From the NCBI RefSeq assembly GCF_018977255.1, contig NW_024704742.1, positions 71,860,001 through 71,924,000 of the forward strand: a stretch of 64,000 bases of DNA, written 5' to 3'. The position numbers and the translations under genes were made by a program. Positions 14,445-64,000 of the stretch are shown here, piece by piece (position 1 is the stretch's first letter; each line of letters begins with the position of its first letter). The stretch is from Callorhinchus milii (taxonomy: Eukaryota). The notes beneath the pieces are model-generated. The model was given only the letters and a program-made list of their open reading frames with translations, was not told where the DNA came from and made no database searches.

Positions 14445-15858
14445 GCCTAAGTCATACATTCAGTTAAATTTCTTTGCACCAATCATTTATCACCTAACTT
14501 TGTTCCTCCACCCTCCATTTCTCCAGAATTTACCAGCTGCATTGAATTGTGAGAAATTTAGTTTTGATCCATCAATGCATGCGCTGAGGAACTTTATTTC
14601 CAGCGATTCCAACCCTTGCCAATAAGTACACATGTCAAGACGCATTCAATTGTGAGAAATGTAGACTTGACCCGTCACCTGCACACTTACCAGCTGCAGT
14701 GAAGTACACATGCACAATGTTGATTATTGATTAAATCAGATTTTATACATCTTATATAAGTTTGCCTGCAACTCAGACTTCGCGTAAGTCATATGAAATG
14801 TTATAGTCCTGACTGATATGACTTATGTGAGTTTATAGTGTATAAGAACAAAGGTTCTCTCTTTTTGGTGGTGTTTGGTCAGCTGGATGACTGATGCATG
14901 TGAAAACTGTGATTAAGAGCCTCCAATTCAGACTTAAAGACCCACATAGAAATTCTTGTGTCTGAAAAGGAATATGCATTCTCTCCCTGGAGGGATGCAA
15001 CCTACTTACCTAATTCCGGAGAGTACTAGGCACAGGTTGGCAAGAGCCAAGGCTTGGAGACCCCAGGGTAAACTGGGAAAGCAGTGGGAAGCTCTCCAGT
15101 GGCTTTTGATGGCAAACTGCGGTTGTAGTTTGTTAAACTCCACCAGGTCTGCATGGCTCAGGTACCTCACTACTGAGACAACCACCGAGGGTTGACTCAA
15201 ACTTGACATTGCATTGCCAAGCAGGTCAACTGGGAGCCAGTTCAACTTCAAGGAAAGGCTGCTTACTGTATTATTTGTCAATCCACAAGACAGTTTAAAT
15301 TCAATAGTTCCTTTATTTCAACCTTACACTCCTGAACACTCTGCCCAGTCACTTTCCCAGAATCCTTTTATGCTTCCTACTTGCTTTTCATTGTCAATCT
15401 CCAATTGCCAATTTAACCTTAAAGCAATATGCAACATTTACCTCCCCACTCACCACCCCCACTCTGAGGATAGTCACTAGTTGGTGGATCTGTGATGATT
15501 CCTATATTAATGGGGCTGGTTTCCTTTTCTGTTGCAAAATCTTTATTGATGTGATGCTTCAAAACAGGAATAGGATATGTCTTTCACCCTGCAGGAGATC
15601 AGGTTTCAGGGTAAAGGATAGAGGGCAGCAGTGGATGGATGAGCCATCAGAAGCACAACACAAAGCTATTGAGGTCACTCCGAACATAGACCACAGGCAA
15701 TGTACCCCAGTGTGAAACAGGTAATTGCCAACAAAATAGTGTTATGGAGCCCCTGTGTGTATCATAGAGAATAGCAGCCCAGTGTAACATGGTAGTAGTG
15801 AACACAGTTGCCGTTATGTGGATGTGTTACTGACCTATGTTTGTTCTGTTGCCCACAG

Positions 15859-15974
15859 CCAGTGCAAATATCTGCAATGTGGTCCTGATGAGGCATAGTG
15901 AGCTCATCGAAGGGATCTCCGTGCTTGACGAAGAAGGGAAATTCGTCGGTTCATCCAAGATTGCTGCAAGCCAT
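15859..15974 (+). CDS. SFXN5: SFXN5 exon ([39 protein letters not shown]), phase 1/0
   Basis: ccacag acceptor and gtaagt donor. Strong match to SFXN5 [12 protein letters not shown]...GSSKIAARH. Confidence 0.96.
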
Positions 15975-16115
15975 GTAAGTATTTCAGTCTATCCCAGTGC
16001 TTCACTGATTGCCACAGCGAGCTTTACTCTTTATCTGTCACTGACCTAGCAGTGTGGACGGACAGTGTAGAGAAAGCATCACTCTGTCTCTAGCCCATGC
16101 TGTCGCTGGCCTGGA

Positions 16116-21509: not shown

Positions 21510-21790
21510 CAACAACAAATTGTATTTATATTGCACCTTTCACATTGCAAGGATGTCCCAAGGTGCTCAACAGTCAAGGGTTTGCATGGGGCATGGAGCA
21601 GGTCAGTTTTCTCCGAGCGAAGGGAGCGGACAGGAGGTTTTAGCACGTTACAGAGGCAGGGAGGAATAAGATTGCAGAGGGCTTTAAAGCTGAGGATAAG
21701 GATTTTAAACTTGATCCTCTGGGGGATGAGGAACCAGGGGAGCCGGGGGACGATGGGGGTGATGGGCTCACGAAGTTTAGTGCGGAATAA
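21510..21790 (-). mobile_element. L2 3' fragment ending ~30 nt upstream of an SFXN5 acceptor
   Basis: L2 tail plus the [17 protein letters not shown]2 motif. Confidence 0.78.
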
Positions 21791-21823
21791 AATACTCACA
21801 AGCGTCCTTGTTTTTCCATCCAG

Positions 21824-21941
21824 GACGTCGCTGGTGAGGTCGCGGCCCAAGCTGAGCCTCCCCATACAGAGTCTTGTCTGCCTGGTTGCCTTCGGACTCG
21901 CACTGCCTGTCGCCATCTCTCTCTTTCCACAGATGTCAGAG
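21824..21941 (+). CDS. SFXN5: SFXN5 exon ([40 protein letters not shown]), phase 2/0
   Basis: atccag acceptor and gtcagt donor. Contains the ALPxAISLFPQ motif. Confidence 0.96.
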
Positions 21942-22144
21942 GTCAGTGAACTCAGGGCGGTGAAACATTGCTGCCCCTCCCACCCATTCACTCCGTAAGT
22001 CCTGGGTTAATACCCAAATGACTGCCCCAATGGAGCCTTTAACAAGTTCTGCAAACCGTGTGTAAATGTTGGAAGTCGCTGTGTAGTCACAGGGTGAGGG
22101 CGTGTTTTTCAGAAGGACACTGGCAGAAACTCAAATGGTTCTTT

Positions 22145-45496: not shown

Positions 45497-45664
45497 TCAG
45501 TCCTCAGAAGTGACGTCCACCTCCTGTGGGCTGGGCTGGCGTGTGGCCAGACGCCAGCGGTTAATGTGGTGCGATCCCTTCCTCTTCGGCCCGCACTCTG
45601 GACCCTCCTCCTCCAGCTTCTGACGCTTGTATTTAGTCCTGCGGTTCTGAAACCACACCTTCAC
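45497..45664 (-). CDS. EMX1: Emx1 exon 3 ([55 protein letters not shown])
   Basis: ttgcag acceptor on -. Encodes homeodomain helix 3 WFQNRR and the Emx C-terminal tail; RTKYK is typical of Emx1. Missed by the ORF track. Confidence 0.96.
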
Positions 45665-48600
45665 CTGCAACACAGCCAGAACGTCAGCTCAACAGCTAAT
45701 AATAATATAATAACAATAATAATCATCCTTTATTTGATATAGAGCCTTATCAAGTTATTACTTACTGCTGGATAACCAGAAATGTGTGGAGTAAGGAAAC
45801 TTGCCTGAGGTTTTGCCTGGGAATCAAACTTGGGTCCTCTTGCTTGTGTGGCAAGCCCTCTAACCACTACACTACATGACTCCAGGCTAACGTCACTGGC
45901 TAATAATAATAATAATAATAATAATGCTTGCATTTGATAGAGTGCCTTATCACGTTGTTGAGCCGTCTCAAAGCGCTTCAACAACAAAAACAACAACTTG
46001 CATTTATATAGAGCCCTTCGCGTGGGGTAGCGTCCCGGAGCACTTGACAGAATTTACTAGCGCACCAATCACTACACTACAGGACTCCATGCTACCGGTT
46101 AATGTTACTGGTTAATGTTACTATCCAGTGCTAGTGGTTAATGTTATTGGCTAATATTACCCACTCACATTGGCAAGGTCACAAGCTGGGTTTGGATGAA
46201 GAAGCATCTGGCTGATCTCATGCCTCCAGAACACTCACCCAACCGCCCTCCAGCACCACAGCATCAAGCTGCTTTTTAGATGAGGCTTCAACCCTGCCCC
46301 CGATTCCTGGTAACCCAGTCGTTAATTACCCTCTGGGTAAAGAAATATTTCCCGGTGTCTGTCCTGAAATTGCCTGTTTACATCTCTAAACCTCTTGTCC
46401 CTGTGTCTTTTGAATCCTATTTAAAATGTTGAAAAGGTCCCCTCTGAGAAAACATTTTTCATACTTCAAAATATCAGCTCATAGCTATATTTTATAATTG
46501 TTCATATTTATGCTGATGTAATCGGGTGTGATTGACAGGTTTTTTTTATAAATGGTAAGTTGATATTTATGACTATTCATAGTGTACAGCTTGAGACAGT
46601 TTGTCTTACAGAATTTAAATAAATAAACAAACAAGTAAATGTCTAAGTACACTAATTAATTAATTAATTAATTAATAACTGACTAAATAGATCTAGTATA
46701 AATAGATCTGAATAAATCCTTGTATTTCATATAGCATCTTATCAAGTTGTTGAGACTTCTCAAAGTATTTCACAGGATTTACTGTTATATACTCTGAATT
46801 TCACTGGTAAAACGCAGCAGCCAGTTTGCACACAGCATGTCCCACAAACAGTCATAAGATGAATGACTGATTGTATCTGGGGATTGTTGGCCAGGACACC
46901 AGGAGAGAGAAACTCCCTTCTCTTTTCCAATAGCACCGCGGGATCTTTAACATCCACCTGAACAGGGCACAAACGGAAGCTTGGTTTAATGTCTCATCAG
47001 AAGGAAGGCATCTCTGACATTGTATGATCAGATTGTAAGATGAAAGTCCCCAACATGGGGCAAGGTTTTGTTTTGTTCAATAACAATTTAATTAGTTATT
47101 ACATTTAATTAATTAAATACATTTATTACGAATAGGTAAAAACAACCTCTCTTACTTCTCTGTGTTTTCAGCACATACTTTCGCCCGCAAAATATACAGT
47201 CAATTCACTTTACAGTATATTCTGTGAAGCACTTTGAGACATCTCGAAGATGTGTTAAGGCGCTATATCAAATATTATAATAATAATAATCCTTGCATTT
47301 GATATACCGCCTTATCACGTCTTTGAGTCATCTTAAAAGTGCTTCACAGGAGACCTTTTCCAAAGTGATGTGTAAATGTATGTTGTTACTGTGTTTGTAA
47401 AGCACATTTCATGTAAACTTGCCCTAATATTACACCAAGATCACAGTGTTAATAAACTGAGACATTGTGGAGCTGGTGAGCTGGATCACTATGTCATAAA
47501 CAGTTAGTAATTCCCACATCTGGTCTTGTGTTTAATAATAACACTATCGCCACTGTAACTGTTGGAGGTCAAAGTCCAAAAGAGACTGAACTGCAGTTAC
47601 CAGAACCTTTTGTGTGTTACAAACGTATCAAAGAGTTGCACCAAATCAAAGTGAAAAAATAATTTGGTCACTCAATCCACAGCTGTTTGTGGGACACTGT
47701 TGTGTGCAATTGGCTGCCGTGTTTCGCCCACAAAATACAGTCAATCCACTTTACAGTATATTCTGTGAAGCGCTTGGGATGTCTTGAAGACGTCAAATAT
47801 ATATCAAATACAAGGATTATTATTATCAGAAAGGGCGCAATTACTGTCACGGAGATGAACACGACAGCTAATCTGCACCGGGATGTCCCGTGCACAGCTG
47901 GGAGGGCAGCGGCCAAGATTTTGGGAGTGAATTTCGGATGGAAGAGAAAGTGCAAGACAAACTGGAGGATAAGTCTTGATAAACAAAGCTAAAACACTCC
48001 CTTCACCTCCACTCGGGCAGAGACGGACAAGACCTGAAAATAATAATCCTTGCATTTGATATAGCGTCTTATCACATCATTGAGACGTCTCAAAGCGCTT
48101 CACAGGATATACTGTAAATTCAATTGAATGTATGATTTGTGGGTGAAACGCAGCACAGCAGTGTCCCACAAACAATCATGGATTGAGTGACCACATTAGT
48201 TTTTTTTGTTGGGAGAGATTATTACCCCCGGAAAGCAATCCACCAATCGACTAACAACCGGGTTCCGACTTAATACAAATAATAATAGTCCTTCCATTTG
48301 ATATAGAGCCTTATCATGTCTCGGAGACGTCTCAAAGCCTTCACAGAATATACTGTAAATTTGTCTACGGTTTCGCCCTAACGGGAATCAAAACCAGGTC
48401 CTCTTGCTTTCGGGGCGAATGCTCTAACCACACACACACACACACACACACTGGTATCTTAGCAACCTCTACCTCCTTCAACTGCAACAGAGCAGTTTAA
48501 CACTTTCAGATCAGGAGGGGTTTGAGCGAAGGGAGAAGTGATTTTCACTGGTGGGCGAGTCAGTGATTGCAGTTTAAAGTGATCATCAGACGACAAAGAG

Positions 48601-50019
48601 CAACTTAGAGAAATCATTACCCACACACACTGGGGTTCAATCTGCCACAGCCTCGTTCACACCAGGAGCACGTCTCAAAGAGCTTTCGCGTTTCACCCAC
48701 AAAATACACAGTCACTCCACTTTACAATGAATCCCGTATGTCTCAACGACAAAATAATAATAATCCTTGCATATAAAGTAAATTGACTGCATATGTTGTG
48801 GGCGATACATAAGACATAAGGCGCTATATCAAATACAGGGATTATTATTACTATATCCCGTGACCGTGTGTTTTGTAGGTGTACGTCAATTCGCACACAG
48901 TGACCAATGCAGTAAATAACATTAAAGTAAAGGGCATTTATTTTAATTAAAAAAAACACTTAATTAATCCATTTTAATTTAAACCACTTAAACCAGCCCA
49001 GAGGCAATAAGTCACCTCTTCATTTTCTTGTGTGAGACATAGCTTGGGTTGGAAGTGTGGGACACTGGAGGGGTTGTTCAACTAATTATTATTTGTGAAA
49101 CGGTTTAAAAATTAATAACAATAATAATAATCCATGCATTTGATATAGTGCCTTATTACATTGTTTAAAAGTCTCAATGTGCTTCACAGAATATACTGCA
49201 AAGTGAATTGACTGTATATTTTGTGGGCGAAACGTGGCAGCCAATATCGCACAGCAGTGTCCGACAAACAGTCTGGATTGAATGACCAATTTTTTTAAAT
49301 TGTAGACTTTTTTTTAATCTCTTTTTTAACTGTAAGATTCTCAGAATTTTAAAGAATGAAAAAAATCATTGCTGATGTGAAAGCCAGCCTGAAGTTCAAA
49401 CCAAACCAAGAAACATTTCAAAATCTCCAAACAAAACAAATCTGGGTTTGGGTTGAATTTCAGGCTGTGTGAATGTGAGGCACCTATTTTATAGGTTGAT
49501 TTTGTGACTTTTTATCTAAAGGGCTGCGTGTGTGTGTGAGAGAGAGAGCGAGAGAGTGAGGCAGAGGGACCCTGTATGTGTATTGCACGGATACTACAAC
49601 AAATTACATTTGTATAGCATCTTTCAAATCAGGAAAATATTAATACTATGTTAATACTATATATAATATATAATACAAATATAATATATAGATAGGAATA
49701 ATATTTATATTTTAATATATACATTTATTGTAAAATGTTAAAATATAAATAGATATCAAATGGAAAGATACACTAGTAATCTTTACATCTGTCAAGTTAT
49801 GATATGATTTTAAACGTAAGTTCTCGCTTTTCTACCCCCTCTTATTTTACTTTAAAAGTATCCAAAGTGAGTGTCTGCTGCTCACACAGCTCTGCCTGGC
49901 CTGCACTTAGCATTTCCCAATGTCAGACAAACACTCAGCCAGGGACATAAAGGGGGCAGCAGGGGGAGAGAGACACAGAGTCAGAGAATTAAACTGTCCT
50001 CGGCCCTGGGTGATATAAA

Positions 50020-50332
50020 TAATAATAATAATAATCCTTGCATTTGATATAGCGCTTTTCACGTCTTCTCGAAGTCTCAAAGCGCTTCACAGAATATACT
50101 GTAAAGTGAATTGACTATATTTGTGGGCGAACGCGGCAGCTAATTGCGCACAGCAATGTCCCACAAACAGTCGTGGATTGAAAATGACCAATTTATTATT
50201 GCTTTGTTTTGGAGGGATTATTATTAGGTGTGTGGAGTAAGGAAACTTGCCCAAGGTTTTGCCCTGCCTGGAATTGAACCCAGGTGTCTCGCGTGCAAGG
50301 CAAGTGCTCTAACCACTGAGCTACAGGACTCC
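50020..50332 (-). mobile_element. SINE family A with an internal deletion
   Basis: Head and tail intact; part of the body is missing. Confidence 0.85.
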
Positions 50333-50404
50333 TCAAATATACAGGGATCACAGCAGGACAGCTCTCTCTGCTCTCTGACACAGTGAATTATAAGCAAATT
50401 GGCA

Positions 50405-51550
50405 GACAGAGAGAGAGAGCATTGAGAGAGAGAAAGAGAGAGCATTGAGAGGGAGAGATGGAAAGAGAGCAGTCAGAGAGAGAGAGAGAGCATTCAGGGA
50501 GAGAGAGTATTCAGATAGAGAGAGTATTCAGATAGAGAGCGAGTATTCAGAGAGAGAGAGAGCAGTCACAGAGAGAGTATTCAGATAGAGAGCGAGTATT
50601 CAGAGAGAGAGAGAGAGCACAGTCACACAGAGAGTATTCAGATAGAGAAAGTAATCAGAGAGAGAGAGCAATCAGAGAGAAAAGGTATTCAGATAGAGAG
50701 TATTTAAAGAGAGAGAGAGAGCAGTCAGGGAGAGAGCAGTCAGAGAGAGTATTCAGATAGAGAGAGAGTATTCAGAGAGAGAGAGCAGAGAGAGAGAGCA
50801 GTCAGAGAGAGAGAGAGAATTCAGATAAAGAGTATTCAGAGAGAGAGGGAGCAGTCAGAGAGAGAGAGAGAGAGAATTCAGATAAAGAGTATTCAGAGAG
50901 AGAGAGAGCAGTCAGAGAGAGAGAGAGAATTCAGATAAAGAGTATTCAGAGAGAGAGAGAGCAGTCAGAGAGAGAGAGAGAGAATTCAGATAAAGAGTAT
51001 TCAGAGAGAGAGAGAGCAGTCAGAGAGAGAGAGAGAATTCAGATAAAGAGTATTCAGAGAGAGAGGGAGCAGTCAGAGAGAGAGAGAGTATTCATATAAA
51101 GAGTATTCACAGACAGAGGGAGCAGTCAGAGAGAGAGAGAGAATTCAGATAAAGAGTATTCAGAGAGAGAGAGAGCAGTCAGAGAGAGAGAGAGAATTCA
51201 GATAAAGAGTATTCAGAGAGAGAGGGAGCAGTCAGAGAGAGAGAGAGAGAATTCAGATAAAGAGTATTCAGAGAGAGAGAGAGCAGTCAGAGAGAGATAG
51301 AGAATTCAGATAAAGAGTATTCAGAGAGAGAGGGAGCAGTCAGAGAGAGAGAGAGTATTCATATAAAGAGTATTCACAGACAGAGGGAGCAGTCAGAGAG
51401 AGAGAGAGAGAGTATTCAGAGGGAGAACGAATTCAGAGAGAGAGAGAGAGAAGTCAGATAGAGTGAGTATTGAGAGAGATCGAGAGTATTCAGAGGGAGA
51501 GAGAGCAGTCAGAGAGAGAGAGTATTGAGAAAGAAAGAGTATTCAGAGGG
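50405..51550 (+). repeat. GA-rich satellite, ~52-56 bp unit (gcagtc(ag)n aattcagataaagagtattc(ag)n), in Emx1 intron 2
   Basis: Visible tandem periodicity, homogeneous in 50800-51400. Confidence 0.93.
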
Positions 51551-51654
51551 AAAGGTGCCCCGTGTGTGTTGCTGTATAGCGACTGAACCCCTCACCTGAC
51601 ACTGAGTTGGGAGTAATGTCTTACATTCATTTTGTGTTGATGCAGAGTTCTGCA

Positions 51655-52160
51655 GTTGTCTATAATAATAATAATTTCTGAGACTGTCACCCAGGAATTA
51701 TTATTATTAGAGAACACTTAATATTATTCATGACCTCTATTGCAAAAAAATCATAAATGAAATGAGTTCTACAATAATAAGAATAAATATTTTGTCTAAC
51801 TATAATTTTTATTGAGAACTTTCCATTATTATTATTGCATTAGTATTATAATTCTGCAATCATAATAATGAAATGCGTTTTCAATCATAATCATTATAAT
51901 TAGACAAACATATTGATTATTAATTCAAAACTTGATTCATAGGCAAAAATATTTAATAATAATTATTATTGCAGGACTCATTTCATAGTTAGACAAAATA
52001 TTAATTAATATTATTACATAACTAATTTCGGAGACAAACGACTAATTATTATTGTAGAACTCATTTCACAATAAGACACAACTATTTATTATTATTGCAG
52101 AACTCATAGTTAAACAAAAATATGTATTATTATTGCAGAGCTCATTTGGTAGTTGGACAA
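51655..52160 (+). repeat. Diverged AT-rich tandem repeat, ~40-45 bp (attattattgcagaactcatttcatagttagacaaaatatt)
   Basis: Recurring attattgcagaactcat / agacaaa blocks. Confidence 0.7.
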
Positions 52161-54949
52161 AAAGTGAACTTTGTTTTACTTGTTCAGGATTTTAGTTGAG
52201 ATTTGTTTTATAAACTTCTGAAAGTTACAATATGTTTTCACGGCACAAACGGTCACTGTTTGTTTCGTTTATAATCTATTTATTTATCCTATTCTCCCCT
52301 CATTTTAGTGTTGGTTGTTTCTTCATTCAGAATTTTAAATAGATTTTTATTCATTTTAAATGGGTTTGACTCCTGAATCTCTTCCCTTTTTAATCTTAAC
52401 TCATTTATTATTTCCTTTTTCTTCTCTCCCTTTTTATTTTCGCGTACATTTACCGCACCTTAACCTTTTTAAAAACTTTTTTTAATTTCAATTTTATTTT
52501 ATTTTCTGATTTTTTCGCTTTTTTGTGAATCTTATTTATATAATTTCATTCACTAACCCTTTGTTTTTGTTTGTTCAATTTTCCCCTCTTTATTTTAAAT
52601 AAAATCTGATTAGTTTTTTAATTGAATTATTAAGCCAGAGAGTGAATATCTCTGCTTTCCATTTCTGATTGCATCCTTTTAAAAATTTAGATAACATTTG
52701 ATGCTATGATTTAAAATAATGCGAGCATTTCTGATAGCATTACTTTAAATCATAAAATAAAAATGATTTTATTTTTGGGGAACACTTCATTTTTAATTTA
52801 CTGAATGCTATTTTTTATAGCTTGTTTTATTTGAGTTTTGTATTCTAAATTTATAATAAAACAATAATAATAATAATAATTATGTTTCTTCCACAGCCAA
52901 TCCACTTCACGGTATATTCTGTGAAGCGCTTTGAGCCGTCTCAACAACACGATAAAGTGCTATATCAAATGCAAGGATTATTATCATTATTATTAATTTC
53001 TCATCGGGAGGACACCTCAAAGCACTTCATGGGATTTACTGTAAAGTGTATGACTGTATTTTGTAGGTGAAGATACCAACCAATTTGCACACAGGAACAA
53101 TCCCACAATCAGCTATGAATTGACTGATTTTATTATTTTTATTATAAAAATATATTATTATTATTTAATGTACTTGCCCTTTGTTTTAACTTTTGTATGT
53201 TTCTTTCNAAAAAAATCCAATTTGAATTTGAATCTGTTTATACTGATTTTCCCCATTATTTTGAAAGTATTTAATTACCCTTATTTAACCTTTGATTTAC
53301 ATTTATTTGGAATTCTCCCTTTTTAAATATTCACAAAATTTGACTGATTTGGAGTCTTATTTTATAAGATTTTCATTTTCGCTTATTTCTGGGTTTTTCC
53401 TCCTTTTTTAAAGATCCATAGAAATTGACAGCACAGAAGTCGGTCATTTAATAATAATCCTTGCATTTGATATAACGCCTTATCAGACGTCTCAAAATGA
53501 TTCACAGGATATACTATCAAGTGTATTTTGTGGGCAAATTGTGCCTGTGCTGGCTTCTTTAAGAGCAAATCTTTCAGTCCTATTTCCCTACCCTTTCCCC
53601 ACACACTTGTTGACTCCTTTTTAAGATATTTTTCTAATTCCCTTTTGAAAGCTAATATGGATTCCACCTCAACCATCGCTCCCGGCAGCACATTCCATAT
53701 CCTAACTACTCTGCGCTTAAGAAAAAAATCTCCTGAACTCCCCATTTGCTCATTTTCAAAATACCCAGTCAATCCACTTTACAATATATTCTGTGAAGCA
53801 CTTTGAGACGTCTCAACGACATGATAAGGCGGTATATCGACTATAAGGATTATTATTATAACTATTTTAAATTGATGCTCTCTAGTAACTAACTCAACAA
53901 ACAGATTTTAATTGTCTAAAACATATACCGTTTCAAATCTTGTTTTTAAATTGTTTTCACTTTAATTTATTCTGTTTTTTGCATTTGTTGTATTTTTTTC
54001 TTTAATTTGTTTAAAAGCAGTCTCTACACTTCATTAAATCCTGTGAAGTTTTTGAGATAATGTTACAAGTGATACTAATAATAATCCTTGCATTTGATCA
54101 TTTTGTAGAGACATCTCAAAGCGCTTCACAAAATATACTGTAAAGTTGATTGACTGTGTATTTTGTGGGGAAACGTGATAAGTGATTATACTAAATGAGA
54201 GGATTAATTGTTTGTATTTTTAAAAATAATTTGTCTTTTTATGACTCTTAATTTTAACCATTTTATTTTCATTTATTCTGATTTTCCCCCTTTTTTTCAA
54301 GGATCCTGATTCTGGATCTTATTGTTTAATCTTTTTTATTTTAATTTATTCTATTTCGTTCCCTGTTTTCTCATTCACCAAAGTCACTGCACTTTTCTTG
54401 ATGTATTGAGGCTGTATTAAATGCAAGGATTCTAATAATTATTATTAAATCGTTATTGAGACATCTCAAAGCGATTCATAGGATATACTGTAAAGTGAAT
54501 TGACTGTGTACTTTGTGGGTGAAACAATAAACAGAAACTTATTTTTTCTAGTACATTTACAGATTCTAAATATTATTTTACACCCTTTTAATTTTTGTTT
54601 ATTCTGATTTTCCCCCTTTTTATTTTCCAATAAATTTTACCAACTTATAAAATGTTATTTTATAGCTCCTTAATTTGCATTTAATGTGTTTTTTTAATGT
54701 GAGCGTTTCGCTCACAAAATACACAGTCAATACACTTTACAGTGTATCCTGTGAAGCATTTTGAAACATCTCAACGATGTGATAAAGCGCTATAAACAAT
54801 TCTAAGTAGTATTATTATTGTTTTCTCTGTTCCATTTTCTAATACTGTAAATTGACTAATTCTGAATTTTATTTTAGAACCTTTTTAGTGTGCATTATTC
54901 TGTAGGGAGGGGGTTTCTTTTAATTTGTGATTATTGTTCCAATAATCGT

Positions 54950-55345
54950 GGAGTCCTGTAGCATAGTGATTAGAGCACTCGCCTCGCAAGGGAGAAGACC
55001 TGGATTCAATTCTCGGGCAGACAAAGCAATGGGCAAGTTTCCTTACTCCACACGCCTCTGTTTACTTAGCAGTAAGTAGGAACCCGATTGTTAGTCGATT
55101 GATGGATTGCTTTCTGGGGTAATAAATCCCTCCAAGAAAATAATAATGATAATTTGGTCACTTAATCCATGACTGTTCTTGGGACATGACTGTTTGTGGG
55201 ACACTGCTGTGTGCAATTGGCTGCCGTGCCGTTTCACCCACAAAATATGCAGTCATTTCACTTTACAGTTTATTCCATGAAGCGTTTGAGACGTCTCAAC
55301 AATGTGATAAAGTGCTATATCAACAGCAAGAATTATTTATTATTG
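54950..55345 (+). mobile_element. SINE family A, full length (tRNA-Ala-like head, CORE-like block, Deu-like block, L2-type tail)
   Basis: A-box-like tagcatagtga, B-box-like ggattcaattc and anticodon-like loop tcgcaa. Carries a small internal duplication of catgactgtt...ggga. Confidence 0.88.
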
Positions 55346-55682
55346 TTATTTTATAACTTCTTAATTTGCATTTAGTGTGTTCTTTTTTCGCTTATATTTA
55401 TTTTCCTTTCTAATAAATTGACTGATTCTTAATTTTATTTTGGAATCTTTTTATTGTGAATTATTCTGGAGGGGTGGGGGGGATTTGGTCCTTTTAATTA
55501 TACATAATAGTAATAATAATAATCCTTGCATTTATATAGCATCCTTCACTCAGAGTACCATCCCACAGCGCTTGATATAAGACCTTATCACTGTAAAGTA
55601 GATTGAATTGTGTGCTGGAGATTGAGTAATTCAGTCCCAGTGAGGATGTGGTTAGAGGTATACTGTGTGTGTGTGTCTGTAC

Positions 55683-55867
55683 CTGGGTTTCGGACAGGCT
55701 CAGACTGCCCGCCAACTGTTTCCTCTCAGCTCCCACCACATAGTGATTTTTCTCAAACGCCTTTTCCAACCTCAGGAGCTGGGACGGGGAGAAGGCGGTG
55801 CGGATGCGTTTGGGTTTCCGAGCGAAAGGTCCATGTAAGAGCAGTGTTTCGTGAGTGGCATCACCCC
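55683..55867 (-). CDS. EMX1: Emx1 exon 2 ([62 protein letters not shown]), 185 nt, phase 1/0
   Basis: CT-rich tract + cag acceptor and cag|gtac donor on -. Emx homeodomain with the Emx1-type [11 protein letters not shown]. Confidence 0.97.
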
Positions 55868-57299
55868 CTGATACACAGAGAGAGAGAGAGAGGGAGAGGT
55901 CAGCAGCGGCTCAGATTATTAAATCGTGTTGGTTTAAAGCTCGGTGTATAACCTGCTATAAATTACTGGTTAGATCCCAGAGGCTCCCTATAGCTGGAAC
56001 TGAACACACCATTACTCGTTTGCTCTTCGCTCAATGATAATAATAATCCTTGCATTTGATATAGTGCTTCACAGAATATACTGTAAAATGAATTGGCTGT
56101 GTCTTATGTGGGAGAACCACGGCAGCCAATTGCACACAGCAGTGTCTCACAAACCGTTGTATTTATTTAATGATATTAGTTTCAATTCAAATGTTTCTCT
56201 TTCCCCCTTTACAGATTTCATTCTGTTATCAATTGCCACCGGCCGAGTGGAGCACTTGATAATCAAAAGAATCTTAGCATTTGAAATTGGGATTTCATGT
56301 CGGGAGGACATCTCAAAAGGCTTCACATAATTCACTGTCAAATGCAGTGACTACAATTGACAGGATCTTTAACGTCCACCTGAACAAGGCACAAATGGAG
56401 TGAGGTTTAACGTCTCATCTGAAGGACGGCATCTCTGACAATGAGGTGCTCTCTCTCCCCCCACAGCATTGGGCTGAAGCGTCACACACTGACACTTTAT
56501 AATATACAATGACATTTTCAATGGAGAGGAACCCTGAGGTTATTATAACTTTAACCTGAACCTTCTGGGTTTATTTAGTCAATTTTACGTAAAATTCAGC
56601 ACTCGCTTCACGGCTGTTTGTGAGGAAACTCACTGCCGCATTCACCTACACAGTCACTGCATTTCACAGTGAATCCGGTGAAGTGCTTTGAGATGTCCTT
56701 CTAAAGTAGAATGTTTTGTATGAGATGTAAACATTTTCATTATTCTATTTTTATTATTTTGATTATTATATTTATTATATGTGTTCCTGTGATTGTGTCT
56801 CTGATAGATAGAAATAGAGAGCTAAGTAGGTAGATAAAACCTCTCTCTCCCTTCTTCACTCTTACTGCCTTCTTTTCCTCCTTTCTACACCTCTCTCTCT
56901 CCCCCCTTCTCTCTCCTCTTTCCAGCGCCTTGGGACGTCCTCCCAACATGGTAGGTGCTAAATGAATGCAGTCTGTTGTTCCTCTCTCTCCTGTTCCCCT
57001 CTCTCCTACATCTCTGTCTCTCACACCTGTGTCGCTGATCTCTAACCACATCCAGTTGGGGTCAGACTGTGGGTGTAAAGCTCTTCATTGTTGGTTTCTT
57101 CCAAAATCTAACTGTTTAAACCAACTACAGGCGGTGAGAACTCACGTGTGTGGGTGATAATAATGATATAGTTTGATATAGCTCCTTATCACATCTTCAA
57201 GACGTCTCAAAGCGCATCGCAGAATGTACTTTAAGTGAATTGACCATATATTTTGTGGGCGAAACGTGATGTGTGCTTTGTGTGTGTTGTTGGGTGCTG

Positions 57300-58075
57300 T
57301 GTTTGGACTCTCTCTCTCAGTCTCTCTCACTCTCTGTCTCACTCTCTCTCTCAGTTTCACTCTCTCTGTCTCTCTCTAACCAGCCATTGCACACAGCGAA
57401 GAATAACCCTTTGATTACTCCCCACACCCCGCTCTCTCACTGTCTCCTCTGTCTCTCTATATATATAGAATTATATATACACCGTATATAATATGCAGTA
57501 TATATATATATCAGTCTCCTCTCTCTCAGTCTCTCTCTGTCTGAGCCTCTTTGTCTCAGTCGCTCTCAGTCTGTCTCTCTCCCTCTCTCGCTCTGTCTCT
57601 CTGACTGATTCGGATTGCAATCTCCATTGATTCTGTTTCTTCCTCTCTCTCCCTCCCTCTCTCTCTCTGTGTCTCCCTCTCTGGATTTCTCTGTCTCTCT
57701 CTCTCTGTGTCTCTCTGTCTCTGTGTGTGTGTGTGTCTCTCTGTCTCTGTGTGTGTGTGTCTGTGTCTCTCTGTTTCTCTCTGTGGGTGTGGGTGTCTCT
57801 CTCTCTGTCTCTGTTTCTGTGTGTGTGTGTGTCTCTCTCTCTCTGCCTCGCTCTCTCTCTCTCTGTGTCTCTGTGTGTGTGTGTGTCTCTCTGTCTCTGT
57901 TTCTCTCTGTGTGTCTCTCTCTCTGTGCCTCTCTCTCTCTCTCTGTCTGTGTGTGTGTCTCTCTCTGTCTCTGTGTGTGTGTGTCTCTCTCTCTCTGTGC
58001 CTCTCTCTCTCTGTCTGTGTGTGTGTATCTCTGTGTGTGCCTCTCTCTCTCTCTCTGTCTGTGTGTGTGTGTGTG

Positions 58076-58107
<32 letters not shown>

Positions 58108-58600
58108 TGTGTGTGTGTGTGTCTCTCTCTCTCTCTCTCTGTGCCTCTCTCTCTCTCTGTGTGTGTGTGTCTCTCTCTGTCTCTGTTTCTCTGTGTGTGC
58201 CTCTCTCTCTCTCTCTGTCTGTGTGTGGGTGTGTGTCTCTCTCTCTCTCTGTCTGTGCCTCTCTCTCTCTGTCTGTGTGTGTCTCTCTCTCTCTCTCTCT
58301 GTGCCTCTCTCTCTCTGTCTGTATGTGTGTGTGTCTCTCTCTGTCTCTGTTTCTCTGTGTGTGCCTCTCTCTCTCTCTGTGTGCCTGTATGTGTGTGTGT
58401 CTCTCTCTGTCTATGTTTCTGTGTGTGTGTCTCTCTCTCTCTGTGTGTGTCTCTCTCTGTCTCTGTTTCTCTGTGTGTGTGTGTCTCTCTCTCAGTGCCT
58501 CTCTCTCTCTCTCTCTCTGTCTGTATGTGTGTGTCTCTCTCTCTGTCTCTGTGTGGGTGTCTCTCTCTGTCTGTGTGTGGGTGTGTCTCTCTGTGTCTCA
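57300..58600 (+). repeat. Compound (CT)n/(GT)n microsatellite tract
   Basis: Direct inspection. The long ORFs here are low-complexity artefacts. Confidence 0.97.
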
Positions 58601-59289
58601 GTTTGAGTCGCTCTCCCTCGAGTTCACAAAATTGTTACAAAGATTGTTTGAAAAAATAGACAATCTGGAGAATAATTGCCAAACCTTCCAGACAAAAATA
58701 TATATAAAGAGAGAGAGAGAGAGACGGGCATACAGAGAGAGAGATACAGATTATTATTATATAGAGAGAGACACACAGACATACATAGAGATACAGATAT
58801 ACTGTGTGTATATATTATATAGAGAGAGACACACAGACATACAGAGAGAGATACTTATATACTGAGTGTATATATAATACTAATTGTTATATAGAGGGAC
58901 ACAAATATACAGAGAGAGAGACACAGATATACTGTGTGTATATATTATTATATAGAGGGACACACAGACATTCAGAGAGAGACACAGGTATACTGTGTAT
59001 ATATATAATACTAATTATTATTATTATTGTATACAGGGACACACACAGATATACAGACACGGGATTCCTCACGGTGGGCTGTGTGTGACTCACAAACAGG
59101 GCTATTAACCTGAATTACACTTATTATTTAATAACCTCCATCCTGAGTCACTCCTCCCTCTCCTGCCTCACCAATTTATTTTCTCTTTTTCACTCCTTCT
59201 CACACTCCTCTCTTTCACAGTCGCTCTCACCATCTCTACACGGTGACCCCCTCCTCACACAGCGGCACTTAGTTTGATCGTTTGAGACC

Positions 59290-59720
59290 CGGGAGGGAGG
59301 CAGAGAGGAGGGGAGAGAGGGGGAGAGAGGGGAGAGAGGGGGAGAGAGGAGGGGAGAGAGGGCAGAGAGGAGGGGAGAGAGGGGGAGGGAGGAGGGGAGA
59401 GAGGGGGAGAGAGGGGGAGAGAGGAGGGGAGAGAGGAGGGGAGAGAGGGCAGAGAGGAGGGGAGAGAGGGGGAGGGAGGGGGGGAGAGGGGGAGAGAGGA
59501 GGGGAGAGAGGGGGAGAGAGGAGGGGAGAGGGGGGAGAGAGGGCAGAGAGGAGGGAGGGGAGAGAGGAGGGCAGAGAGGAGGGGAGAGAGGAGAGAGGGA
59601 GGGAGGCAGTGAGAGAGATAGAGAGATCTGTCACACTCATACAGGGTGTGTAAGTGTGCAAGCTGAGAGAGGGAGGAGATAGAGAGGGGAGGAGAGAGAG
59701 AGAGAGAGAGGAGAGAGATT
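59290..59720 (+). repeat. Polypurine (G/A) tract upstream of Emx1 exon 1
   Basis: Almost pure G/A sequence. Confidence 0.95.
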
Positions 59721-59840
59721 CTAACACAGCTCACCTTAACTGCTGACAAACCAGATCAGAGACTGGTCAGCAGCTCAGTGCCAAGTGAAGGCTTTAAACC
59801 AGGTAAAAGATTCTTAACCGAGCCTGTGTGTGAGGGGTGG

Positions 59841-59875
<35 letters not shown>

Positions 59876-60003
59876 GGATGGAGCCAGACACACAGTGAAG
59901 TGACTGACATACAGTCACCTCTCTCTCTCTCTCTCTGCAGCCATGCTCTGAGCTGAGCTGATCTGATCTGATCTCATCAACACTCCGCTGACTTTATCAT
60001 CAA

Positions 60004-60040
<37 letters not shown>

Positions 60041-60269
60041 GCACATATATTTATATGTATTTTGTGGAGGAGGGGGGCGTTTTATTGCCAAGAAAAAAGT
60101 AAGTAACCCTAAGTGGATTTTTTTTTCCCCCCAAGGAATCAACAACAACAAAAAAATCTCTCTGGTGGGAGTTCAAATAAACTTTTTGCGTATATATCAT
60201 ATACAATTGTGTGTGTGTGTGTGTGTGTGTGTGTACACACCGTCTGTGCAATTATATATATTATATACT

Positions 60270-60313
<44 letters not shown>

Positions 60314-60641
60314 ATGTTCCAACCCACGGCTAAGAGATGTTTCACTATCGAGTCGCTGGTGGCGAAGGATATCCCCCTCTCCCTGGAGGACAGTGTCCGG
60401 GCACCGGCGGCTCTCGCCTATCCCACCGCTTCGGAGGCGTTCGGGAGCGGTTACCCGGCGGTGGGGAGGTCCCTGTATCCGCGCCCGGAGCTGCTGTTCC
60501 CGGAGGCGGTCAGTCAGCCCAGTCTGCCCGCCCCGCCGGACCCCCGCCTCCAGCACAGCTTCTTCACCCCTCAGCACTCCGACCCCCTGAACTTCTACCC
60601 CTGGGTCCTCAGGAACAGGTTCTTCGGGCACAGATTTCAAG
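60314..60641 (+). CDS. EMX1: Emx1 exon 1 (MFQPTAKRCFTIESLVAKD...LNFYPWVLRNRFFGHRFQ-G), 328 nt, phase 1; on the opposite strand to exons 2-3
   Basis: Contains the eh1-like FTIESLV motif, the FYPW hexapeptide and NRFFGHRFQ, with a caag|gtaaga donor. CpG-rich. The phase-1 end joins exon 2 in frame. Confidence 0.95.
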
Positions 60642-60719
60642 GTAAGACACGTCGTCCACACACACACACACACACTGTGTGCACATACACACACATATAC
60701 ACACGTGAATATACTGCAC

Positions 60720-61680
60720 AGAGAGAGAGGGAGAGGGAGGGGGGAGAGAGAGAGAGAGAGGGGTAGGAGGAGAGGGGTAGAGAGAGAGAGAGAGAGGGGT
60801 AGAGGGGTAGGAGGAGAGGGGTAGAGAGAGAGAGAGAGGGGTAGAGGGGTAGGAGGAGAGGGGTAGAGAGAGAGAGAGAGGGGTAGAGGGGTAGGAGGAG
60901 AGAGGGGTAGAGAGAGAGGGACACACAGGGAGACATAGATGGAGAGAGAATGAGAGGGAGAGAGGAAAGAGAGGGACAGAGAGAGAGAGAGCGAAAGAGA
61001 AAGAGAGAGGAAGACAGGAGAAGGGAGAGAGAGAAAGAGAGAAAGGAGAGAGAGAAAGAAGGAGAGAAATAGAAAGAGACAGAGCGTGAAATGGGAAGAG
61101 AGGAAACGAGAGGGTTTGGAGGAAAGAGGGGGTGAAAGAAAAAGAAGAGAAGAGAGAAGAGAGAGAGAGAGGGGGAAAGATGTATTAAAGCGTTCCCCGA
61201 AGGTACGCGAGAGCCCCGACTCTGTGCTCCAGAGAGAGCGGAATATCTTTCGCTATTAGCGATTCGATAGAGAAACATCTCTTAGCAGTTGGTGGGAACA
61301 TTATTCACACACATATATATATATATATAACTTTTTGTGTGTATATATATATGTCTAAATATATACAGCGCCTTGAGACGTCTTCCCGACGTGAAAACTT
61401 CTGTACAATTGTATTAATTTTAATACAAAAAAGAGAAAAGAAAAGAGGGAGAGAGAGAGGAGAGAGAGAGGGGAAAAGGACAAGGAGACAGCAGAAGGGA
61501 GAGTGGGAGGGAGAGAGAGAGAGAGAGAGGAAGGTAGAAGAAGGGAAAGAAAGAGTGAGTTGAGAGAGAGAAAGGAAGAAAGAGAAAAGGGAGGGATGGG
61601 AGAAAAAGAGAAGAAAAAGAAAAAGGGGCGAAAGAAAGAGAAGGAATGAGAGAGAGAGAGAGAGAGGAAGAAAGTACGAG
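60720..61680 (+). repeat. Polypurine tracts downstream of Emx1 exon 1, including a ~43-bp tandem unit
   Basis: Direct inspection. Confidence 0.9.
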
Positions 61681-63487
61681 AGATGTCTTAAAAGAATTAT
61701 TAATAATAATAATCCTTGCATTTGATATAGCGCCTTATCACGCAGTTGAAATGTCTCAAAACGCTTCGCAGAATATACTGTAAAGTGTAGTTAGTGACTG
61801 TATTTTGTGGGTAAAAGTTTTTGTTGAATGAATTATCCTTTATTTGTACACACGCCTTTCTTTATTCACAATTGTTTTCTTAAATTAATTAACAATATTA
61901 ATAACAATAATAATAATCCTAGCATTTGATCCTCATTTGTACGTCGGGAGCATGTCTCAAAGCACTTCATGAAGGTCACTGTAAAGTGTAGTGACTGTGT
62001 AGTCCCACAGCAGTGGAGGAAATAATCTCACTCTGGGTCCAACTCAAAAACCAGCCTCTGTCTCAGTAATAATAATCCTTGCATTTGATACAGCGCTTTA
62101 TCTTGTCTTCGAGACGTCTCAACAGAATATACTGTAAAGTGAATTGACTGTGTATTTTGTGGGCAAAAGAAAACAGTGACAAACAGGAGCAGACGATCCC
62201 TCTATTTCACATCCACAAGTTTCCTCGCACCATCTCTCTCTCATCACCTCAACCACCCCCAGTCTGTCCATGTAGAGTGTCTTGCCCGTTTGCCGTGAGA
62301 GTCTCTGTCTCATCGCGGCTCCAGAGCTGTGGTTATCACACACCCAGTGATCACCAGTTACTGGAAAGTTAACCTCTCCGTCCATGCTCTCTCTCCCCAA
62401 GTTTTCACCTTATTTTGAAACTCCAACCTCTTGTTAAATTTTGCACATAGGAGAAAAACACAGCCAAATTTTACAACCTTTTATTTCCCACTGTGTGGTT
62501 TCCACAGTGCGGATCACTTGTGTTGAACCTATTACCTGATGCCTTGTGTATTGTTGTTTAATTATAATATTTCCATATACAAACAAATAATAGTAATAAT
62601 CCTTGCATTTGATACAGCACCTCATCATGTCGTTGCAACATCTCAAAGCGCCTCACAGGGTATACTGTAAAGTGAATTAACTGTGTATTTTATGGGCAAA
62701 AAATAAAGACTGGTTTAGAGCCTGGAAAAAACAGAGATATATTTGATGAAATGTCTACCTGGCTGCTCATTGGGGATGCTGGTGAGATAACAATAATAAA
62801 GTAATTTGGTCATTCAATCCAAGTTTGTGGGACACTGCTGTGCGCAATTAGCTTCCGCGTTTTGCTCACAAAATATACAGTCAATCCACTTTACAATATA
62901 TTCTGTGAAGTGCTTTGAGTCATCTCAATACACTGATAAGGCGCTATATCAAATGCCAAGATTATTATTAGTAGTAATACAGTATTATAATAAATCTTGC
63001 ATTTAATAAATGCTTTATCACATCATTGAGATGTCTCAAAGTGCTTCACAGGATTTTACTGTGTCTTTATTGGCGAGATGTCTATCTATGTCACAGGTTG
63101 TGTGAGTTTCTCTCTCTGGTTCAATATCACAGCAACTCAGTCAGCAACACGTGGAGTCACGGAATGTTCTGGCACTGAAATCGACCGTTTAACCCGTCCG
63201 GTCAAGACAGGTGTTTGTCTCAGGCACGGCTATATCCTCATTCTCCTGTGGACTCACAGTAGTCTTTAACCTTCCCTTTAATGTCCCTTTTTGTGATGAT
63301 CTTAAACTTGTGCCGCTAGTGACTGAAATCAAAATATCATCCTTCACAGTAACAATGCAAAAACTATATATTTTAATTTTATTCATTTAAAAACAAGCGA
63401 TAAATATATCACCATCAAAAAGTAAGTGTGACTGGGGAGACCGGGTGCTGGCTGAGATATTGTTTTTATATATAAACCTTTTACCTT

Positions 63488-63792
63488 AGGCAAGTTTCCT
63501 TACTCTGCACACCTCTGTTTACTCAGCAGTAAGTAGGAACCCGGTTGTTCGTCGATTGGCAAATCGCTCTCCCGGGGGTAATAATCCCTCAGAAAATAGT
63601 ACTCATAATAATAATAATAATCATTTGGTCACTCAATCTAACGAATGCTTGTGGAACACCGCTGTGTGCAATTTGCTGCCGTGTTTCTCCCACAAAATAC
63701 ACTTACAGCATATTTTGTGATGCGCTTTGAGACGTCTCAACAGTGTGATAAGGCGCTATATCATATGCAAGGATTATTGTTATTATTATTAT
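63488..63792 (+). mobile_element. SINE family A lacking the tRNA head
   Basis: Body and tail present. Confidence 0.85.
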
Positions 63793-64000
63793 AAAAGTAA
63801 TGTGATTTATATTATTTTTAAATCTAAAAACCCAGCTTGCTCTGAGCAGAACTGGGAGTGAACAGTATGATGCAAGTGGGACTTGCAGCTCAAGAATGTG
63901 AGAGAATTTAAACCGAGAAACAGAGAGAGAGAAAATCTTACACTGAACTCAAAGTGTTTTCTCTCTGATTTCCCCCGTGTGAGTCCAACCTTTTCCAAAC

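Follow-up and report, generated by a model that had tools for sequence, protein, structure and literature searches.

The reversed first exon of Emx1 in the elephant shark genome is most likely a local mis-orientation of the assembly

The Emx1 locus and its product

The window, that is the whole stretch of 64,000 nucleotides of Callorhinchus milii DNA that was analysed, holds the three coding exons of Emx1 and a sideroflexin-family gene (PF03820). The latter is found on the plus strand at 15771-16031 and 21762-21947, and is convergent (tail-to-tail) with Emx1 exons 2 and 3. The first-pass annotation of the window had called this neighbour SFXN5, and the PF03820 matches on the plus strand bear out a convergent sideroflexin at the family level. 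The features around Emx1 are, by position in the window:

45497-45664, minus strand: Emx1 exon 3, with the second part of the homeodomain, the C-terminus and a TGA stop (acceptor ...TTGCAG)
55683-55867, minus strand: Emx1 exon 2, with the first part of the homeodomain (acceptor ...TATCAG, donor GTACAG)
56800-58600, on the plus strand: pyrimidine-rich (CT/GT) low-complexity tract (TRF, skew profile)
57027-57051, minus strand: makeshift first coding exon of the model XP_042199659.1, MWLEISDT plus 1 nt
59291-59626, plus strand: G-rich purine tract (self-BLAST)
60314-60641, plus strand: Emx1 exon 1, intact and on the opposite strand from exons 2 and 3 (translation, orthologue alignment)
60719-61055, plus strand: another purine-rich tract of that type, immediately past the exon 1 donor
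61213-61365, minus strand: truncated and diverged copy, in inverted orientation, of the beginning of exon 1 and some 50 nt of 5' flank (tblastn, inverted-repeat search)

All three Emx1 exons are undamaged and their GT/AG splice sites are canonical. They are not co-linear on one strand in the assembly, exon 1 being on the plus strand and exons 2 and 3 on the minus strand. The translations and the reading of the splice sites agree on these points with the first-pass annotation, which had given the same coordinates, the opposite strands and the intact splice sites. Exon 1 consists of 109 codons plus 1 nt (MFQPTAKRCF...FGHRFQ), followed by the donor GTAAGA. The homeodomain (PF00046) is encoded across exons 2 and 3, as seen from the precomputed PF00046 match on XP_042199659.1, which contains both. 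When the coordinates are joined by script, exons 1, 2 and 3 make up 681 nt in which the phases fit, with one open frame of 226 amino acids plus a stop.

Every one of the best database matches of the exon 1 peptide is named EMX1. Aligned with nine orthologues, the peptide has both the conserved start, MF..KRCFTIESLVAKD, and the conserved end, FYPWVLRNRFFGHRFQ; it is 62-74% identical to them, and is altered at positions that are otherwise invariant. The gene resembles EMX1 of other vertebrates, e.g. Scyliorhinus canicula (P0007), Latimeria chalumnae (P0004) and Pristis pectinata (P0072), in its three coding exons, the N-terminal and FYPWVLRNRFFGHRFQ motifs, the division of the homeodomain between exons 2 and 3, and the convergent sideroflexin neighbour. 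It differs from them in that the assembly has exon 1 on the opposite strand, and in that the C. milii protein is rather diverged. Exon 1 was also looked for in public sequencing runs with 29 sampled words, which gave six rows from three studies, the share of words per run being 1.00 (X1-X3), 0.86 (X4), 0.66 (X5) and 0.41 (X6). None of the rows listed is an RNA run, and this search is uninformative on expression.

The joined coding sequence is identical over 226 of 226 residues to UniRef100_V9KTW9, 'Empty spiracles homeobox 1, Callorhinchus milii' (P0251), a record that is also named gi/632979951 XP_007906757.1 'PREDICTED: homeobox protein EMX1'. The records of the same species thus join all three exons, and the earlier reading of the 681 nt as a single gene with a product of 226 amino acids holds. 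Judging from the style of its accession, V9KTW9 presumably comes from a transcript set of 2014. XP_007906757.1 is a RefSeq XP entry with an old gi number, which we take to have been predicted on an earlier genome assembly, and this implies that the exons are co-linear there.

The NCBI model on the present assembly, XP_042199659.1 (P0170), is only 139 amino acids long, and a makeshift exon of eight codons replaces exon 1. The makeshift exon is joined to an acceptor at 55909, which lies 42 nt upstream of the true exon 2, and 57051-57027 + 55909-55683 + 45664-45497 translates exactly to the model. Protein database searches with exon 1 showed no match from the species itself, the best identities being 68% and 63%, and the reason is that the 226-aa protein sits inside a cluster that is represented by the 139-aa model. 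A passage of PMC3964593 states that C. milii transcripts have been deposited. Among the papers listed for Emx1 and the elephant shark, none is about gene structure as far as their titles and the opening lines of their abstracts tell.

Tracts, gaps and a partial copy around exon 1

That exon 1 lies amid low-complexity tracts, as had been noted from the start, is confirmed by TRF and by the strand-skew profile. There is a sharp switch in purine skew at about 58600, and between the pyrimidine-rich tract at 56800-58600 and the purine tract at 60965-61045 the complementarity is 70-76%. The switch at about 58.6 kb was considered as a test of orientation and rejected, since it would be seen at a real and at a false junction alike. 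The G-rich tract at 59291-59626 has an inverted counterpart, C-rich on the plus strand, which lies beyond the window at the window-equivalent positions 66552-68503, and the two are 84-89% identical over 310-350 nt (self-BLAST). Inside the C-rich tract there is an assembly gap of 25 N (window-equivalent 68011-68035). Exon 1 is further bracketed by a second pair of inverted tracts, CT at 57.3-58.6 kb and AG at 60.7-61.2 kb.

A region of 294 kb holds three gaps of this kind, all three adjoining C-rich tracts, and the flipped segment lies within the final 8.7 kb of a gap-free stretch of 118 kb. Its left border has no N gap, and exons 1 and 2 share one gap-free stretch. When DNA from either border or from the right part of the segment was searched against the same genome, each query matched only its own place, at 100%, and dispersed repeats. 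Between the window-equivalent positions 61.6 and 84 kb, there are 169 ORFs of 50 aa or more on the two strands, of which 127 were scanned with Pfam; the other 42 belong to a low-complexity block in which all frames are open (L018:2000-4500) or are other ORFs of L018. Apart from a fragment of RVT_1 and a single chance match below the threshold, the 127 ORFs gave no matches; there was no homeobox match among them, nor any gene that spans a border of the segment and could fix its orientation.

The first-pass annotation had found no exon 1 on the minus strand in 55868-64000, which is wrong in detail, since a decayed partial copy is found at 61365-61213. With tblastn it aligns to amino acids 1-34 of exon 1 (76% identity, E 1.6e-11), and as an inverted repeat it is 76% complementary to the start of exon 1 over 147 nt. 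In a local alignment 74 of 89 coding bases are identical, with 4, 1 and 10 mismatches at the first, second and third codon positions. The copy has a stop after 38 codons and, read by eye, no in-phase donor. Its non-synonymous changes, Q3P, T11S and V16I, all depart from the state that most of the nine orthologues keep (T11 and V16 in 9/9, Q3 in 6/9). The codon-position bias was taken up as a possible sign of a once-functional copy and rejected by hand calculation: 4/1/10 is not clearly different from the 1:1:2 of one constrained and one neutral copy, and the idea of a functional copy was therefore dropped. Judged by its sequence, the minus-strand copy is a pseudo-exon, left by a separate, old and decayed partial duplication of the start of exon 1.

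The orientation of exon 1

The most likely explanation to an exon 1 on the wrong strand is a local mis-orientation in the PacBio CLR/Falcon/HiRise assembly, and not new biology. In the animal, the exons would be co-linear and encode the 226-aa homeodomain protein, whereas the few kilobases with exon 1 would have been inserted backwards in the assembly. This would probably have come about by a false join, or a false closure of a gap, through the inverted tracts when the long reads were assembled or scaffolded or when gaps were filled, and the public annotation would thereby have lost exon 1 and ended up with a truncated EMX1. Mis-orientation across low-complexity tracts was ranked first already in the first-pass annotation; it keeps that place and is strengthened, since the 226-aa record of the same species joins the three exons and since inverted tracts, one of which contains a gap, lie on both sides of the segment. 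The records, with the presumable provenance given above, show the other order, and the borders of the segment lie in repeats and a gap (59291-59626; 66552-68503 with the 25-N gap).

Table 1 of PMC12952989 lists PacBio CLR reads, Falcon, Dovetail Chicago/Hi-C and HiRise for the assembly that the record of XP_042199659.1 names, and inversions persist as a leading error of Hi-C scaffolding according to the abstract of PMC6719893. The locus is like the orientation errors of long-read and Hi-C/Chicago assemblies in that the segment is small, has inverted low-complexity repeats on both sides, adjoins a gap where a contig ends, and belongs to an assembly produced from CLR reads with Falcon and HiRise. 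It is unlike them in that one border has no N gap, hence it is not a simple flipped piece of scaffold. With a gap-free left border the error would sit inside the contig or at a closed gap, which counts against mis-orientation. The same can be said of the G-rich tract on the left side, which with about 340-430 nt is short for a false overlap of long reads, and of the absence of any alternative version (haplotig) of the borders from the assembly.

That the sequenced individual carries a real inversion is clearly less probable, but has to be weighed. A segment of 2-9 kb with the promoter and exon 1 would have been flipped, by breakage or recombination between the inverted tracts, giving a recent, probably polymorphic or heterozygous, null allele of Emx1, and the older records would stem from chromosomes on which the order is normal. 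There are inverted tracts at both breakpoints of the segment, and inverted repeats and H-DNA-type tracts favour genuine inversions as well as false ones. The left border is gap-free sequence, and a heterozygous inversion likewise breaks the contig at one border. The exons are undecayed, which fits a young event, and as Emx1-null mice are viable, a null allele could persist. There is also a known parallel in the human F8 gene, where inversions of intron 22 and intron 1, mediated by inverted repeats, split the gene in haemophilia A. In both genes inverted repeats bracket the first exon or exons, and the flip parts the promoter and exon 1 from an intact remainder, but the repeats at Emx1 are short, imperfect low-complexity tracts with 84-89% identity. 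What speaks against a real inversion is that the records of the same species join the exons, and that an inversion that splits one particular conserved developmental gene is, by a rough estimate, much rarer a priori than an orientation error with CLR reads and Hi-C. Gaps beside C-rich tracts are moreover general in the region (3/3), so the gap needs no inversion. It is rather unlikely that the assembly is right for the sequenced animal; if it were, a very young natural null allele of Emx1, a conserved gene of forebrain patterning, would segregate in elephant sharks beside the co-linear allele of the older records.

Opposite-strand trans-splicing, known from mod(mdg4) in Drosophila, would require that every animal has exon 1 on the opposite strand and joins two separate transcripts, and we regard it as extremely improbable here. 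The likeness is that exons of one mature message are found on both strands of the assembled DNA: the exons united in the protein record lie on opposite strands of this assembly, and the donor and acceptor sites are intact. XP_007906757.1 is however presumably a genome-based prediction, which is unable to join strands and argues for co-linear DNA elsewhere. Both Emx paralogues are co-linear, and no vertebrate coding gene is known to be constitutively trans-spliced from opposite strands. In contrast to mod(mdg4), an explanation at the DNA level is sufficient for Emx1, given the records of the same species and the co-linear paralogues, and trans-splicing is not needed.

The number of Emx genes was settled by six-frame searches of the whole 991.5-Mb assembly, in which exons 1, 2 and 3 of Emx1 are found in one 100% copy each and neither exon 2 nor exon 3 has a duplicate. 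This exon-by-exon search for extra copies had been proposed together with the reading that the plus-strand exon 1 belongs to an inverted duplicate with its other exons outside the window, i.e. that there are two paralogues. It is true that the first part of exon 1 has an inverted partial duplicate at 61365-61213, but the whole-assembly searches refute that reading for this assembly and leave it with next to no probability: each exon is single, the remaining Emx exons belong to two co-linear genes, the only others, on contigs C13 and C7 (54-88% identical), and no homeobox match was found among the 127 ORFs.

Meaning for elephant shark EMX1

The practical value of the analysis is a correction. 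The current EMX1 model of the elephant shark, with 139 amino acids and a makeshift first exon, is an artefact of the locus, and the true EMX1 product is the 226-aa protein that is already on record. Regulatory and comparative work on Emx1 should treat the orientation of the window-equivalent stretch 58.6-68.5 kb as unreliable. If the inversion should after all be true, a slowly evolving vertebrate would carry a natural knockout allele of Emx1, which would be of moderate interest and would involve no new mechanism.

Emx1 exons and the records of their product

The three coding pieces of Emx1 are present as the first-pass annotation had described them, with exon 1 on the + strand and exons 2 and 3 on the - strand, each recognised by its translation and splice sites.

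60314-60641, +: exon 1, 109 residues (MFQPTAKRCF...FGHRFQ) and one extra base, then GTAAGA
55867-55683, -: exon 2, translated from its third base, acceptor TATCAG, donor GTACAG
45664-45497, -: exon 3, acceptor TTGCAG, peptide ending ...TSED, then a stop
15771-16031 and 21762-21947, +: sideroflexin-family gene (PF03820), convergent with Emx1 exons 2 and 3

In an alignment with nine orthologous EMX1 proteins, both the conserved start and the FYPWVLRNRFFGHRFQ end are retained in the exon 1 peptide. This alignment, the exon translations and the convergent sideroflexin gene together mean that the split-strand observation is genuine and that chance can be discounted by a wide margin. The elephant-shark protein also differs at two sites that are invariant in the 9 orthologues (QHSDPLNF for QHRDPLNF, RLEKAFEK for RLERAFEK), and its HPHQLG..HLQHP stretch is shorter than in all 9. 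These changes are unexpected for an animal whose genome is known to encode slowly evolving proteins.

Searching with the peptide of exon 3 leads to 'homeobox protein EMX1 [Callorhinchus milii]' (XP_042199659.1, 139 residues), whose contig, at 139202109 bases, matches in length C1, to which the window belongs. Its N-terminus, MWLEISDT, is a makeshift 25-nt exon of 8 codons inside intron 1 (57051-57027, -) with a GT donor, spliced to an AG site that precedes the conserved exon 2 acceptor by 42 nt (extra 55868-55909, -). The pieces 57051-57027, 55909-55683 and 45664-45497 translate exactly to this model, so the annotation of this assembly failed to reach exon 1. Another record, of 226 aa, shares a 90% cluster with it and carries the names 'Empty spiracles homeobox 1, Callorhinchus milii' (UniRef100_V9KTW9) and 'PREDICTED: homeobox protein EMX1' (gi/632979951, XP_007906757.1). 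The coding sequence joined by coordinates, exon 1 from + and exons 2-3 from -, is identical to it (226/226), and its absence from the exon 1 search results is explained by the fact that these protein searches display cluster representatives only. Judging from accession style, we take V9KTW9 to stem from transcripts JW861113-JW881738 and XP_007906757.1 to have been predicted on an earlier C. milii assembly. Whatever their provenance, records of C. milii itself show all three exons joined as a single normal product. According to the 2014 genome paper (PMC3964593), RNA-seq data were assembled and the transcripts deposited as JW861113-JW881738. Three studies account for the six public runs in which exon 1 sequence is present; four of these runs have ~900 million letters each and come from four samples, and among the matches listed there were no RNA runs with exon 1.

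The EMX1-like record of the thorny skate, Amblyraja radiata (173 aa), likewise lacks the conserved peptide of exon 1, and its N-terminus is unrelated. In cartilaginous fishes, assembly or annotation may repeatedly lose the GC-rich exon 1 from EMX1 models.

Copies of Emx exons in the genome and the window

Six-frame searches of the whole 991.5-Mb assembly (the window being G000:C1:71860001-71924000) returned one 100% copy each of Emx1 exons 1, 2 and 3, and the only other Emx exons are those of two paralogues, both co-linear.

C13: 10204700, 10194944 and 10182357, -: exons of one Emx paralogue
C7: 2966749, 2969216 and 2972802, +: exons of the other

An inverted duplicate gene with its other exons elsewhere, one of the explanations first proposed, was therefore rejected. 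Sideroflexin-family exons were seen at C13:8.62 Mb and C7:0.36, 3.63 and 4.85 Mb, the Emx paralogues being at C13:10.2 and C7:2.97 Mb; all three Emx genes have such exons on the same chromosome within about 2 Mb, a linkage that fits an old Emx-SFXN paralogon.

The first-pass annotation had found no - strand exon 1 in 55868-64000, but a decayed partial copy lies there. With the exon 1 peptide, tblastn against the window gives a second match at 61301-61200 (-), covering aa 1-34 at 76% identity (E 1.6e-11), and this pseudo-exon makes up one side of an inverted repeat of 147 nt (60263-60409 vs 61206-61352, 76% complementary). Local alignment pairs + 60255-60402 with - 61365-61213, with 74/89 identical bases in the coding part (mismatches by codon position 4/1/10) and 45/58 aligned bases identical in the 5' flank. 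As the homology extends into this flank, any flipped piece must cover at least 60255-60641. The pseudo-exon translates to MFPPTAKRCFSIESLIAKDIPLSLEHRVGALAYLRGTL and then a stop, continuing into CT-rich low complexity; inspection by eye found in it no GT donor in the phase required by exon 2. The + copy and the majority of the nine orthologues keep the state from which the pseudo-exon changes Q3P, T11S and V16I depart (T11 and V16 in 9/9, Q3 in 6/9). The early stop, the missing in-phase donor and these departures from conserved residues made us reject it as the missing exon 1 and identify it as an old, decayed partial inverted duplicate.

Tracts and gaps around exon 1

The + strand is pyrimidine-rich at 56800-58600, switches skew sharply at ~58600, and is purine-rich at 58600-61800 except for exon 1 and the pseudo-exon. 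Self-comparison of the extended sequence, with window numbering continued beyond its ends (window-equivalent), pairs a G-rich tract with a large counterpart in inverted orientation; the two match in many registers, with 84-89% identity over 310-350 nt.

59291-59626: G-rich tract
66552-68503, window-equivalent: its inverted counterpart
68011-68035, window-equivalent: 25-N gap within the counterpart

The 294 kb around the window contain three gaps (window-equivalent -93285, -50179 and 68011), each of exactly 25 N, and C-rich pyrimidine tracts adjoin 3/3 of them, which suggests that such tracts regularly halted the assembler or gap filler. Four single Ns at homopolymer edges in the same 294 kb (window 53208; window-equivalent 129161, 155037 and 165642) resemble ambiguous consensus calls rather than gaps. 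Emx1 lies within the gap-free stretch from -50154 to 68010 (118 kb), so that the flipped exon 1 falls in the final 8.7 kb of this stretch. Exon 1 is also flanked by another, weaker pair of inverted tracts, CT at 57.3-58.6 kb and AG at 60.7-61.2 kb, which are 70-76% complementary. Flipping either bracketed segment would give a co-linear Emx1 whose intron 1 would measure about 3 or 11 kb, against ~2 and ~9 kb in the paralogues.

Other repeats were seen in and beyond the window (L017 and L018 being stretches past its end), among them a ~100-nt dispersed, SINE-like repeat containing ...AATAATAATCCTTGCATTTGAT..., with copies in both orientations around Emx1.

61696-61807, 61910-62000, 62867-62978, 63703-63788, 56067-56154 and 57159-57241: copies of the SINE-like repeat
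58753-59021: 131-nt unit x 2.1, composed of ~61-nt units, with similar units at many genome sites
L017:5484-5600 (window-equivalent 69484-69600): 117-nt piece just past the C-rich tract, also present at 98% identity 1.23 Mb along the same contig (C1:73159414-73159530)
L018:6306-6638, + (window-equivalent ~80.3 kb): RVT_1 reverse-transcriptase fragment (E 8.3e-9), likely the remains of a decayed LINE

Orientation of exon 1

We think it probable that the order of exon 1 is a mis-orientation in this assembly, because its borders fall in inverted low-complexity tracts, one bracketing tract contains a gap, the segment sits at a contig end and every exon is undamaged, and because assemblies of this kind contain local orientation errors far more often, by our rough estimate, than conserved developmental genes are split by real inversions. 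It is unlikely that the order shown is an actual structural allele carried by the sequenced animal, produced by a real recent or polymorphic inversion, although the left border runs on without any Ns, the G-rich tract on that side is short, true inversions can likewise be driven by inverted purine/pyrimidine tracts, and a contig break is equally expected from a heterozygous inversion. All other readings taken together are very improbable; opposite-strand trans-splicing is unnecessary, and the presumably genome-based XP_007906757.1 speaks against it.

The C. milii assembly IMCB_Cmil_1.0 was built from PacBio CLR reads with Falcon, Dovetail Chicago + Hi-C and HiRise (Table 1 of PMC12952989), and PMC6719893 describes inversions as still a prominent error of Hi-C scaffolding. 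Genome searches with the border sequences found no alternative haplotig of the left or right border in the assembly, and no gene across a border able to fix the orientation appeared among the 127 of 169 listed ORFs that were scanned, the 42 left out belonging to the low-complexity block L018:2000-4500 and others.

A co-linear Emx1 certainly exists in the records of the species, and what we see is most likely an artefact, an ordinary Emx1 gene whose first exon was flipped in one assembly. What is gained in practice is a corrected public EMX1 gene model: XP_042199659.1 (139 aa) is to be replaced by the 226-aa protein, which is the true EMX1 product and already on record.
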